Position numbers and translations under genes: made by a program. From contig CBDFGR010000003.1 in NCBI GenBank assembly GCA_965247115.1, positions 544,001 to 608,000 of the forward strand: DNA of 64,000 bases. The letters run 5' to 3'. Source of the DNA: Myxococcota bacterium. GTDB taxonomy: Bacteria; Myxococcota_A; UBA9160; SZUA-336. This document shows, piece by piece, positions 20,509 to 26,846 of the stretch; within the stretch, counting starts at the first letter, position 1, and each line of letters starts with the position of its first letter. The notes below the pieces were generated by a model. The model ran no database searches and was not told the origin of the DNA. It saw nothing but the letters and a program-made list of their open reading frames with translations.

Positions 20509-21441
20509 TCAAACCACCGGGACGGCATCGAGAAGTCTCAGCGCAACACCATGGCGCACGCCAAGCCCACTCACGCGAAACTCCGCGACTCCAACTCGCT
20601 GCAGGACCTCGGCCAGGATCACCAGGCCGGCGACGATCACATCCGCACGTCCCGGCTCGAGGCCTGGAAGGCGCCGGCGTTCGGGCACGCTCAGTGCCGC
20701 CAGACGGGCGATCCAGCGCTCGAGCGAGGACGTGCCCGTCCGGTAGCCCTCGACCCGCTCGGGCAGATAGGGATCGAGGGCCAGCTCCAGTGCGGCGAGC
20801 GTGGTCGCGGTACCCGCGACCGCCGTCAGCTCGGTACCCGCGGCGAGCGCAGGGTAGACCTCAGCCTGCTCTCGAACGCGCTCCCGAAGGGCACGGAGGT
20901 CTTCGCCAGGGATCGGATGCTCGGGGAGAAACGCTTCGGTGTAGCGGACAGAGCCGAGCGGTCCGGAGAGACCCAGGACGCCCCCTTCGGCGCTGGTCCA
21001 CGCGAGCTCTGTACTCCCTCCCCCCACATCGATCACGGCCATCAGCTCTGCTTCACTCCGCCTCCGATTCGTCTCCACGCTGAGCTCCGCCTCCTCCTGG
21101 CCCGTCAGAAGCAGGGCACGGTCGAGAGCACCCTCTTCGCACAGGCCCATCAGGAACTCCCGTCCATCGTCTGCCGTTCGCAACGCTTCGGTCCCTACGC
21201 CGACAACCGTCTGGGCCCCTGCCGCGCGGGCGCGGGTCGCGAAAGCCCGCACCGCGTCGCGCGTGCGCCTGATCGCGGCCGCATCGAGCGTGCCGGTCTC
21301 GAAGGTCCCCTGTCCCAGACGTGTGATTCTGGCCTCTTCCAGGACCGGGCCCGACCGGTCGCGAACCAGTAACAGCACTGTGTTGGATCCGATGTCGATG
21401 ACTGCGACGCGCCGGGCGTCCGCTGCGGCGTTGCTGGCCAA
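20509..21441 (-). CDS. ppx: Ppx/GppA family exopolyphosphatase, short form without HD domain
   Basis: IDIGSNTV, TEALR, GQEEA, DVGGGSTE, AGTATT, RADVIVAG. Confidence 0.9.
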   Translation of the reverse strand: MASNAAADARRVAVIDIGSNTVLLLVRDRSGPVLEEARITRLGQGTFETGTLDAAAIRRTRDAVRAFATRARAAGAQTVVGVGTEALRTADDGREFLMGLCEEGALDRALLLTGQEEAELSVETNRRRSEAELMAVIDVGGGSTELAWTSAEGGVLGLSGPLGSVRYTEAFLPEHPIPGEDLRALRERVREQAEVYPALAAGTELTAVAGTATTLAALELALDPYLPERVEGYRTGTSSLERWIARLAALSVPERRRLPGLEPGRADVIVAGLVILAEVLQRVGVAEFRVSGLGVRHGVALRLLDAVPVV

Positions 21442-21463
21442 TCCTGTCGTGTCCTGCTACGCT
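21435..21463 (+). promoter_or_regulatory. Putative extended -10 promoter
   Basis: TGGCCA-N17-TACGCT with TG upstream (TGnTAnnnT); predicted +1 near 21470, just before the structured region. Confidence 0.4.
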
Positions 21464-21475
21464 GAAACTGTAAAG

Positions 21476-21713
21476 GTGGCGGGGTTTGTGAGAGGCAACC
21501 GTGGGACCTCTCGCCGTAGGCGTGAGCCCAATTCGGTCTTCCAACCGGATTCGAGTGTCCTGACGTCTCGCGACGGCCTTTCCGGGCGCCTCATCTCTCG
21601 GTCCGTTCGCCTCACTCTAGCCAAGAGATCCGTGGCGGCGAGCGTTGGTCGCCCCCGGGGTGCTGACGTTCCGTCCACCCCTCGGCAGGCCGGCTCAGGG
21701 ATCTACTCGCCAC
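21476..21713 (+). ncRNA. Candidate structured RNA / long leader (~240 nt), family not recognised
   Basis: Closing stem GTGGCGGG/CTCGCCAC, long-range TGAGCC/GGCTCA and at least six internal hairpins; strand not certain. Confidence 0.55.
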
Positions 21714-21744
21714 GGCGTCATCCCCTCCGGGGGAGGGAGAGACC

Positions 21745-22836
21745 ATGCGCACCATAGCGGTCATGAACCAGAAGGGCGGCTGCGGCAAGACGACCACCGT
21801 CGTGAGCCTCGCCGGCTGTCTAGCTGCCGAGGGTCATCGCGTACTGGTCATCGACGTAGATCCGCAGGCCCATGCCACACTGGGGCTCGGAATCGACCCC
21901 GACGAGGTCGATGAGAGTCTCTACGAGGTCCTCGCGGATGAGGAGGACGCAGCGGCCCCCTTGGAGGATATCGTCGTCTCCGCGAGCGAGAACCTGGACG
22001 TCGCGCCGAGCGGAGTGATCCTCTCGGCCCTCGAGCAAAAGCTGGCCGCCGAGGGCGCGCGCGGACGCACGGAGCGACTCACGAACGCGCTCGAGAAGCT
22101 CGAGACGGGCTACGACTTTGCGCTCATCGATTGCCCCCCCAACGTGGGGATCCTGACCTTCAACGCCCTGCGCGCCGCACAGGAGGTGATCGTCCCGCTC
22201 GAGACCAGCTACTACGCAATGCACGGGGTGGGCAAGCTGCTGGAGACGATCGGGCTGCTCGAGGACCGGATTGGCCACTCGGTGACGGTGCGGATCCTCC
22301 CTACCCTGTTCGACGGCCGCACGCGCTTCGCGAAGCGAGCCCTGGCGGAGATTCGCGAGACCTACAAAGACCTCGTGTTCGACACGGTGATCCGCCAGAA
22401 CGTGCGCCTGCGAGAGGCTGCACAGCGAGGCAAACCCATCGCGGAGCTCGACCGACGCTCCTACGGCTTCGTGGACTACATGTCCCTGGCGCTCGAGATC
22501 CTGTTCGATCGCGAAGAGGAGATCGAGATGTCGGTCCCGATCGAGCCAGAGGAGCCGGAGACGCTCGGCGGACGGGAGAAGGGCGTGGTGTTCACGTTCA
22601 AGGACCCGGGCGCGGGCGAGGTTCAGCTCGCTGGGGACTTCAACAACTGGGTCCCCGACAAAGGCGTCGATACCCGCCAGACGCCGGACGGTACCTGGGA
22701 GAAGGTCGTACGCCTGGGTCCGGGGGTCTACCAGTACCGCTACTTCGTGGACGGGGAGTGGCACCCCGATCCGAGCAACCCTCGACGCGTCGAGGGGCCC
22801 GCCGGCGGTGTAAACTCGGTGCTGATCATCAGCTGA
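21745..22836 (+). CDS. ParA/Soj-family ATPase fused to a C-terminal CBM48/AMPK-beta-type glycogen-binding domain
   Basis: [32 protein letters not shown]-terminus [11 protein letters not shown]...[18 protein letters not shown]...GGVNSVL. Confidence 0.9.
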
Positions 22837-22874
22837 CCGGGACGCCGCATTTCGGCGCCGAGCGGGAGGCGGCG

Positions 22875-23633
22875 TTGGCGCAGCGCAGGAGCCTCGGAGA
22901 CGTTCTCCACCACTTCATCTCTGAGGAGGAGCAGCAGGTCGCGCGTGAGTCGGCGGCTCGCGCCGCGAAGACACCGCCTCAGCCCGGACCGCGCTGCTGG
23001 ATTCTCGCTGCCCAGCCCGGTCGGCCGCTCAGCTGTTCGCTAGCCCTCGACCTGGCGTCTGCTCGGTCGCGGAGCGGTGCCGACACACACGTGCTGGCGC
23101 CCCTCGACGCGAGCAAACCAGCCGGCGCGGCCGCAGCCTGGACGAGCTTCCGCTGCGGCGAGGCAGGCGGTGTCGCGGAAGCATTCGAGCGTCTGCCCGA
23201 GGGGTCTGACGCGCTGATCCTCGCCTGCCCGGACGAGCTGCCCTCGCTCCTCGCGGACCTGGATCCGGAGCTCCTGGACGGGCTTTTGTTCAGCATCGAT
23301 GCAGCGCCCTGGGGGCTGACCCGGGCACTCCGCTGGCTACGGGGCAGTGCGAGCGCATTCAATACGGCTCGGATTGGTGCCGTCGTCGTTGGTGCCGAGA
23401 GCCGGGAGGTGGCCGCGGATCTGTTCCGCAAGCTTTCGCGCGCAGCGAAGCGCCAGCTCGGCGTCGAGCTCGAGAACTTCGGCGAGATCGAGCGCGACGC
23501 GGCGAGCTATCGCGCACTCCTCGCCGGCGTTCCCGTACTCGAACTCGACCCCGGCGCCGGGTCGTCGCGCAGCCTGACGAACGTGTCCCAGCTGCTCTCG
23601 AATTCGGACCGGACGTTGCGAGGGCCGGAGTGA
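22875..23633 (+). CDS. Hypothetical protein, degenerate MinD/FlhG-like fold with no Walker A
   Basis: TTG start with GGGAGG RBS; C-terminus LFRKLSRAAKRQLGVELENFGEIERDAASYRALLAGVPVL resembles the FlhG C-terminus. Confidence 0.6.
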   Translation: MAQRRSLGDVLHHFISEEEQQVARESAARAAKTPPQPGPRCWILAAQPGRPLSCSLALDLASARSRSGADTHVLAPLDASKPAGAAAAWTSFRCGEAGGVAEAFERLPEGSDALILACPDELPSLLADLDPELLDGLLFSIDAAPWGLTRALRWLRGSASAFNTARIGAVVVGAESREVAADLFRKLSRAAKRQLGVELENFGEIERDAASYRALLAGVPVLELDPGAGSSRSLTNVSQLLSNSDRTLRGPE

Positions 23634-26350: not shown

Positions 26351-26412
26351 CGCGACACACTGTCCCCGCTGCGCGCGTTGACTTCAACCCGGTCGTGGCC
26401 GATTCTGGCTGC

Positions 26413-26613
26413 ATGTTCGGACTCGGCATGGGAGAGCTCTTCATCATTCTCGTGATCGTCCTGGTAATCTTCGGGGCGACACGCCTTCCGATGATCGGCA
26501 AGGGCCTCGGCGAGGGCATCCGCAACTTCCGCGTCGCCACCAAGACGCCTCCCGAAATCGACGTCACCCCGTCGAAGGAAGAAGAGCCCTCCGAGGACCG
26601 CCGCGAGGAGTAA
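26413..26613 (+). CDS. tatA: Twin-arginine translocase TatA/TatE subunit
   Basis: MFGLGMGELFIILVIVLVIFGATRLPMIGKGLGEGIRNF. Confidence 0.93.
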   Translation: MFGLGMGELFIILVIVLVIFGATRLPMIGKGLGEGIRNFRVATKTPPEIDVTPSKEEEPSEDRREE

Positions 26614-26616
26614 GTC

Positions 26617-26846
26617 TTGTCTTGTGGGACCCAGGGCGCGGGCGGCCGCGCCCTTCCTTGTGCGGCCCGGGGCGCGGGCGGCCGCGCCCTGCCCACCTCC
26701 GCTCAGGCCAGGGGCCTTCGCTGCGCGCGCCGCGGCGGCGCTTGCTGGGTGCCTGTCCGGTTCGGCCCAGGGGCGCGGGCGGCCGCGCCCTGCCCACCTC
26801 CGCTTAGGCCAGGGGTCTTCGCTGCGCGCGCGGCGCTTGCTGGGTG
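26617..26846 (+). repeat. Cluster of tandem REP-like elements (one partial, two near-full)
   Basis: AGGGCGCGG-GCGG-CCGCGCCCT-type stem three times; CCCACCTCCGCT(C/T)AGGCCAGGGG(C/T)CTTCGCTGCGCGCGC...GGCGCTTGCTGGGTGC twice. Confidence 0.85.

Follow-up and report, generated by a model that had tools for sequence, protein, structure and literature searches.

A probable structured 5' leader of parA-CBM48 with a sequence-neutral upstream open reading frame proposed to be coupled to parA

In mycobacteria, coupled small open reading frames (ORFs) have been described in which the linkage to the next gene is kept and the peptide is not, and ribosome delivery was proposed as their function (Shell et al. 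2015, PMC4633059). The ORF-11/17/18 of the class 1 integron attI1 site has its own ribosome-binding site and raises translation of the next gene, while residue changes in it matter little (PMC8876359). Both routes of coupling, unfolding and reinitiation, are covered in PMC12548453, in which ribosome delivery by short ORFs is a proposed function and coupling is best at -4 to +3 nt. Rho attenuators such as tnaC, mgtL, corL, speFL and cruR sense a ligand via specific codons or the nascent peptide (PMC12360218), and shielding from Rho by leader translation has precedents in the same article and in bioRxiv 10.1101/2022.06.01.494293. A ParA-AMPK1_CBM system, clade ConB5, has been proposed to be a carbohydrate-sensing immune system (bioRxiv 10.64898/2026.10.19.760177).

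We analysed a spacer of 303 nt between ppx and a parA-CBM48 gene, which holds a candidate RNA, in the genome under study (G000). The parA gene downstream of the leader encodes the same ParA and AMPK1_CBM fusion as the ConB5 ParA-CBM system, and the main text of that preprint does not contain the words "leader", "MerR" or "non-coding" (bioRxiv 10.64898/2026.10.19.760177). A literature search, with most subscription journals outside its coverage, found no publication on the parA-CBM48 leader. Like the mycobacterial small ORFs, the upstream ORF at this locus keeps its placement and linkage and leaves the peptide free; the mycobacterial ORFs are leaderless, 5-50 codons long and have an exact RTGA overlap, whereas the ORF of the G000 family has a Shine-Dalgarno box, is 38-112 codons long and ends between -23 and +19 of the parA start (PMC4633059). 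With integron ORF-11 it shares an own ribosome-binding site, but ORF-11 has 11 codons, is fixed in a recombination site and serves mostly genes without a site of their own, whereas the strong site of parA is predicted to be hidden in a fold (PMC8876359). Synthetic bicistronic designs have the same order of box, leader ORF, inner second box and stop near the next start, but these are engineered and short, and the parA leader is long, structured and variable (bioRxiv 10.1101/2023.02.09.527918). As with the Rho attenuators, there is a leader frame (the translation of which is predicted here), a genome with Rho and more C than G in the leader; unlike them, the parA leader is without a conserved codon run or peptide motif (PMC12360218). 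By its sequence the parA leader likely joins a known kind, the sequence-neutral coupled upstream ORFs.

The ppx/parA-CBM48 spacer and its promoter

All positions are coordinates of the window, the whole stretch of 64,000 nt that was analysed. G000 was compared with G002, a sister genome of the same genus, with 28 parA loci of the family in 15 genera, and with outside-family loci of the class. Of 61 related genomes, 54 have a ParA orthologue, as do 28 of the 32 family genomes (G000 counted in), and the named relatives closest to the G000 ParA were mostly from Myxococcota, Myxococcales or Deltaproteobacteria assemblies. The parA-CBM48 gene is the first long gene of its operon and ppx is divergent from it. 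Such a divergent ppx lies 5' of parA in 26/28 family loci (22 directly; four from cut lengths), and the spacer length was 183-450 nt in the 22 family spacers seen. Four family genomes gave no match to parA; of these, G030 alone has ppx, at a contig end, so that they yield no further leader. The features of the G000 locus were the following.

20509-21441, minus strand: ppx (Ppx/GppA phosphatase family) ORF; PF02541, E 9e-42
21434-21439, plus strand: predicted -35, CTGGCC; 18/28 family loci have TTGGCC or TTGACC, likewise with a spacing of 18 nt
21455-21463, plus strand: predicted extended -10, TG-C-TACGCT; TAnnnT in 25/28 family loci as printed, the final T not being demanded by the locating pattern
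21472-21479, plus strand: Shine-Dalgarno box AAAGGTGG of the upstream ORF, complement-like to the genome's own 16S 3' end GGATCACCTCCTTT (contig C2)
21488-21514, plus strand: GAGAGG/CCTCTC hairpin that spans the start codon of the upstream ORF and can be lengthened to 8 bp; shared with G002
21488-21757, plus strand: upstream ORF of 89 codons from a GTG start to a TAG stop, sharing its last 13 nt with parA
21612-21632, strand not assigned: conserved block with AGCCAAGAGATCC, identical in G002
21642-21692, plus strand: dispensable stretch of 51 nt (17 codons), which G002 has lost without a frameshift
21721-21738, plus strand: hairpin covering the parA Shine-Dalgarno (GGAGG, 21732-36), within the final codons of the upstream frame
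21745-22836, plus strand: gene for a fusion of a ParA ATPase with an AMPK1_CBM/CBM48 domain; PF13614, E 4e-53, and PF16561, E 8e-11

Directly 3' of parA an open frame at 22839-23633 (plus strand) gave no Pfam match to E 1. Elsewhere in the window, at 26560-26800, a short unit is repeated several times in the ORF translations (GRGRPRP and ARAAAP, in different frames), possibly an intergenic repeat cluster, and we take the short ORF at 26395-26613 upstream of these repeats to be TatA-like. At L058, L062 and L063, where ppx is absent, a minus-strand TAGCTT/TAGCCT hexamer was seen by eye ~6-7 nt before the ATG of an ATP-cone kinase gene, which suggests that this gene may be translated leaderless there.

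The 28 family spacers are largely unalignable, yet they have kept the plus-strand sigma-70 promoter and the Shine-Dalgarno box. The extended -10 that had been claimed in an earlier note on this DNA is indeed present, TTGACT-N18-TAnnnT was found at outside-family loci, and transcription would start near 21470 as judged from the promoter. The site in G000 did not come up in a scan with a strict consensus. The first codons of ppx overlap the plus-strand -35. The earlier note had called the strand ambiguous. The plus strand is favoured because the polarity of the promoter is conserved and because changes tolerated on one strand only were found at six positions for the plus and two for the minus strand; the GCGA loop, which had been an argument for the minus strand, is lost in G002. 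Codon-like conservation of a minus-strand ORF at 21457-21678 was not found either, as its start lies in a segment that G002 lacks and the rest is frameshifted.

Contigs from RNA libraries (four runs from two studies) cover the leader at 21435-21701 (X1), 21484-21742 (X2), 21484-21700 (X3) and 21582-21749 (X4). The contigs are unstranded and may include DNA, and the runs were picked because they contain the region, so that they give no ranking of expression. Compared with the window, X2 and X3 had no listed difference over 21484-21628 (145 nt); ten differences were found in X2 at 21629-21705, and X3 has the nine that it covers.

The upstream open reading frame

A G-rich box is found just 3' of the promoter in 28/28 family loci, being part of the pattern by which they were located, and in G000 it sits in the 5' arm of the closing stem. 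A start codon follows 4-9 nt past the box in 25/28 loci, compared with 12.5 expected, and with one locus per genus a start codon was at Shine-Dalgarno distance in 12/15 genera (6.5 expected, P 0.003). In 22 of the 25 loci with a start (22/28 overall), the frame spaced from the box came to its stop between -25 and +20 nt relative to the start of parA, where 6.2 were expected. When one locus per genus was taken and start-less loci were counted as misses, this end-point rule held in 10/15 (3.4 expected, P 1e-4), and a looser statistic, in which the frame merely reaches -25, gave 10 genera against 5.7 expected (P 0.017). The box-defined frame was free of stops in 22/25 loci, in comparison to 21/50 other plus-strand frames and 27/75 minus-strand frames; per genus this was 10/12 against 17/60 other frames (Fisher P 6e-4). 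As a control within the genome, 8/201 other genes with 170-450 nt free upstream showed such a frame (9/202 with the parA locus), a figure that rests on rough gene calls. The rule for start and stop was written after the loci had been seen and the genera are related by descent, so the P values for the upstream ORF are optimistic. This plus-strand ORF is the main conserved feature of the spacer and had been overlooked earlier.

Six of the 28 loci fall outside the rule: L025, L028 and L034 fail it, and L029, L033 and L037 are without a candidate start. L028, L037 and L029 each show an open frame that runs from the box as far as -23, -14 and +13, respectively, without a start that fits the rule (a post hoc observation that was not counted). 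At L037 an ACG, not ATG, GTG or TTG, stands at start-codon distance in the frame open to -14, and this ACG may possibly be a near-cognate start. Genus g10, with its short leaders, frequently has further frames open as well, and 2/11 are out of frame. Within the range of end points across the family, from -23 to +19, an ATGA overlap was found in genus g7 only. G002 retains the upstream frame despite the in-frame 51-nt deletion and a shifted start.

We regard it as probable, at roughly 0.6, that the region is the plus-strand structured 5' leader of the parA-CBM48 mRNA, with a sequence-neutral upstream ORF that couples its translation to parA. From the arrangement of the sequence elements, ribosomes would load at 21472-21490 and translate through the leader, would thereby open the hairpin that covers the ribosome-binding site of parA, and could possibly reinitiate on parA after the upstream-ORF stop. 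More weakly, we infer that translation of the leader would shield the C-rich leader from Rho, and that helices over the upstream box and start codon would set the frequency of leader translation; since the closing stem and the first hairpin cover the box and the start codon in the predicted structure, these helices could gate upstream initiation. Rho is present in the G000 genome and C exceeds G in the leader in 15/15 genera, but a concentrated C-rich patch did not stand out from shuffles (8/15 genera, P 0.55). Against coupling, parA has its own strong Shine-Dalgarno, and the 13-nt overlap lies outside the most efficient range of -4 to +3 given in PMC12548453.

Folding of the leader and the MerR slot

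The complementary pairs of the earlier note that were checked are present in the G000 sequence at the positions given there, with the CGTC/GACG stem at 21564-67/21572-75. The predicted stability of the region was at the level of its shuffles, with an MFE z of -0.43 on the plus strand (67/200 shuffles fold as well) and -0.08 on the minus strand (92/200), and Watson-Crick helices of at least 5 bp numbered 44, against 37.2 +/- 6.2 in shuffles. In the modelled plus-strand ensemble the predicted helices mostly compete with each other. Probabilities were high for the closing stem (0.72), GGGGTG (0.95) and GACG (0.93), in the middle for AATTCGGT (0.55) and GCC (0.49), and low for GAGAGG (0.01), TGAGCC (0.00), GAGTG (0.00), ATCTCT (0.01) and GGCGA (0.00), pseudoknots being outside the model of the program. 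The start-codon hairpin, at 0.01 in this full-length ensemble, showed a weak family trend (11/15 genera, P 0.09). The hairpin proposed over the parA ribosome-binding site does form in the local fold, in which the parA Shine-Dalgarno was paired with P 0.99 in G000 and 0.54 in G002. Occlusion of the parA site was only weakly above shuffles, in 10/15 genera (P 0.04), with z +1.40 in G002.

G002 was the only alignable relative, with 80-81% identity over two pieces; four further matches were 20-60 nt long (E 0.004-0.01). It is without the 12 nt that make up the 5' arm of the closing stem, and the deleted 51-nt segment holds the 3' arm of GGCGA/TCGCC and the GGGGTG/CACCCC hairpin. The closing stem and both 3' hairpins, which had been put forward as part of the structure, are thus not shared by the two genomes. 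Of the core pairs, 35/37 are kept in G002, including both crossing (pseudoknot) helices, and 6/8 changed pairs still pair; among arbitrary candidate helices 13/39 survived fully. Two-sided pair changes between these two genomes numbered 0, and changed positions were 8/74 among paired and 18/85 among unpaired nucleotides (P 0.09). Over 21530-21610 the identity with G002 is 60/81, a divergence near the synonymous rate (parA dS 0.33). The strain contigs X2 and X3 carry a compensatory change from G-C to A-T at 21659/21679, and strain contigs break two other pairs.

A covariance model built from G000 and G002 gave two strong matches in 151 class genomes, these two themselves, and four weak ones (E 0.008-0.04) at chance level, on other contigs or in other families; the model did not score in the 26 other family leaders or in the leader of L040. 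Each lineage has its own, somewhat structured fold. Among the family leaders the plus-strand z was negative in 24/28 and -2 or lower in 8. In genus g10, whose 11 sequences are unalignable to G000, the consensus fold consists of a start-codon hairpin, a long helix over the box and a hairpin at the parA site, with two-sided changes in 8/38 pairs; the number of cells changed was above all 500 shuffles, but counts of this kind lean in favour of the structure, since the same alignment had yielded it.

These data bear on a reading in which an untranslated structured leader, riboswitch-like, thermometer-like or bound by a protein, controls parA in cis and the open frame is a by-product. The preserved core pairs, their lower share of changed positions, the compensatory pair of the strain contigs, the g10 helix over the box and the negative z values across the family are all consistent with it. 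We nevertheless consider it unlikely, as folding is at shuffle level in G000 and G002, no two-sided change separates them, the model reaches none of the other leaders (0/26, nor L040), and the statistics on start codon and open frame are left unaccounted for. The earlier note left the choice between an undescribed ncRNA and a cis-regulatory leader; the family promoter, the RNA contigs and the 35/37 core pairs support the leader, and the undescribed ncRNA found no support.

Outside the family the same slot is occupied differently. A MerR-family gene lies 5' of parA in 17/25 outside-family loci (L041-L065). The promoter-box pattern was found in 13/26 outside-family loci, where the start past the box belonged to the MerR gene in 5, to parA in 1 and to a MerR-remnant frame in 1, and in six the frame was short or a start was missing. 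Because the same slot opens a MerR gene or parA there, the box is read as a ribosome-binding site. At L040 (in G048) a frame of 52 codons past promoter and box, ~350-190 nt before parA, carries a short MerR remnant and looks like a first gene in the course of decay. At L064 (in G037) the promoter-proximal box and a TTG in frame with parA stand ~45 nt before the position that aligns with the parA start; the usual ATG of parA is CTG there, so that the leader slot appears to have become the parA start. A profile of the 17 MerR genes found no similarity below E 2 in the 28 family leaders, so a MerR remnant recognizable by sequence was rejected for them; the profile scored L040 only (E 0.00085). 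A more distant MerR-like gene is located at G000:C2:977079-977492, with 31-37% identity to the class genes upstream of parA. As no MerR similarity is left in the family leaders, we infer from position alone that their upstream frame occupies the slot of the MerR gene.

A bolder version of this history would make the leader a "ghost gene" switch. The operon would have lost its leading MerR gene but retained the ribosome-binding site and frame of that gene as a long, peptide-neutral placeholder. Folds of each lineage (here a pseudoknotted core around the conserved 21612-21632) would gate initiation on it upon a signal, and the outcome would be either Rho termination with a stable leader RNA or expression of a putative carbohydrate-sensing or anti-phage ParA system. 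We regard this as speculative and rather unlikely.

RNA coverage, the conserved block and the peptide

The RNA contigs are of interest for a further reading, in which the spacer encodes a genus-specific, pseudoknotted ncRNA of ~230-270 nt, free-standing or derived from the leader, that acts in trans. The leader is found in contigs of four runs, X1 stops at 21701 and X3, from the other study, at 21700, and both crossing helices are kept in G002. Across 19.9 kb, and among the pieces listed, X1 and X4 match in full length on the leader only, while X2 and X3 match also within other genes; no RNA run gave a full-length contig over the ppx or parA coding sequence. X2 and X4 extend up to and into the parA start, however, no terminator-like site was found at the leader, and the closing stem and two hairpins are missing in G002. 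Together with the two strong matches in 151 class genomes and a shuffle-level fold without two-sided change, this speaks against the ~240-nt multi-stem ncRNA with pseudoknot of the earlier note, and we consider a trans-acting RNA quite unlikely.

Rfam returned no family at gathering score in the 64,000-nt window, nothing relevant to E 10 at 21300-21900 and nothing to E 0.5 on 12 related loci, in agreement with the earlier statement that hallmarks of RNase P, tmRNA, SRP, 6S or a riboswitch are missing. No tmRNA, RNase P or SRP was found here; tmRNA is on C2, the RNase P 5' motif at C3:643058 and SRP at C3:1454344. Short stretches of the minus strand of the leader presumably resemble conserved regions of 6S, but RF00013 has no match at the locus, the long hairpin with central bubble typical of 6S is missing there and a 6S-like gene is found on C2, which led us to reject a minus-strand 6S RNA. 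Since tmRNA, the RNase P motif, SRP and the 6S-like gene all lie elsewhere, no housekeeping RNA is missing in G000. The 6S-like match, at G000:C2:209614-209784 (minus strand; L008:1501-1671), is full-length with 36.7 bits (Rfam cut-off 46.4), and similar matches occur in 6/31 other family genomes, one of them above the cut-off; it is probably a divergent 6S RNA of the family. In G016, G020 and G013 the 6S matches are on other contigs than parA.

The block at 21612-21632 and the stretch 21484-21628 that is invariant in X2 and X3 are left unexplained by the coupled-ORF model. The 14-mer core of the block was found within 3 mismatches in 9/28 loci, and in several genera it falls in different reading frames. 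Read on the minus strand it gives TTGGC-TAGAGT in G000 and TTGGC-TAnnnT in 5/28 loci, and 21619-21614 is a candidate minus-strand -10 for ppx. A sigma-54 reading of the block was dropped, as the GG-N10-GC spacing was seen in G000 only among seven loci checked by eye. A metagenome scan for the block gave 9 matches, none by ppx or parA, which were taken as chance. Because the plus-strand promoter overlaps the ppx start, the ppx promoter must sit in or beyond the spacer. Face-to-face promoters would then produce overlapping 5' UTRs of parA and ppx, with antisense effects or transcriptional interference and no role for leader translation; the conserved blocks and the RNA coverage would stem from this overlap, and the start of X1 at 21435, before the predicted plus-strand start, would be in line with this. 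L023, L031, L036 and L039 keep the block without TAnnnT, though, a fitting -35 was not seen, and the open frame is left without explanation. As the explanation of the region we find this arrangement very unlikely; it can coexist with a coupled upstream ORF.

The peptide of the upstream ORF evolves neutrally, without purifying selection. Its dN/dS was 0.86 in comparison to G002 and 0.52-1.83 over 10 pairs, whereas parA gave 0.025-0.12. Substitutions at the three codon positions numbered 12/13/13 in the upstream ORF and 13/7/52 in parA, and GC3 was 0.66 compared with 0.86 in parA. The eleven strain substitutions inside the frame comprised 7 residue-changing and 4 silent ones and added no stop. 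Neither a Pfam match nor a homologue in a set of proteins 48-156 residues long was found for the peptide, and no conserved motif or sensing codon run was seen in the peptides across genera. The frame is kept in 22/28 loci and three of the ten pairs had a dN/dS of 0.5-0.6, as might be expected if the ORF encoded a functional, fast-evolving, small disordered protein. Substitutions spread evenly over the codon positions, a non-coding GC3, lengths of 38-112 codons, a conserved block in frames that differ by genus and the lack of homologues make such a protein highly improbable. That the region is an ordinary GC-rich spacer with helices and an open frame by chance, as the near-zero folding z, the helix count at shuffle level and the near-synonymous divergence of 21530-21610 might suggest, is hardly credible, since conservation of promoter, box, start and frame end point from genus to genus clearly exceeds the controls.

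The proposed coupled upstream ORF corrects a tempting ncRNA call, in that a helix-rich GC spacer is likely a translated leader. Comparable cases have so far been mostly single examples, from mycobacteria and integrons; the 28 loci in 15 genera provide a clean natural series with constant start, frame and end point, whereas peptide sequence and length vary freely. An intact MerR gene, a remnant and a direct parA fusion at one slot make the idea of a translated placeholder of a lost first gene testable. If true, the coupled leader would be a first handle on the regulation of the ParA-CBM48 operon.
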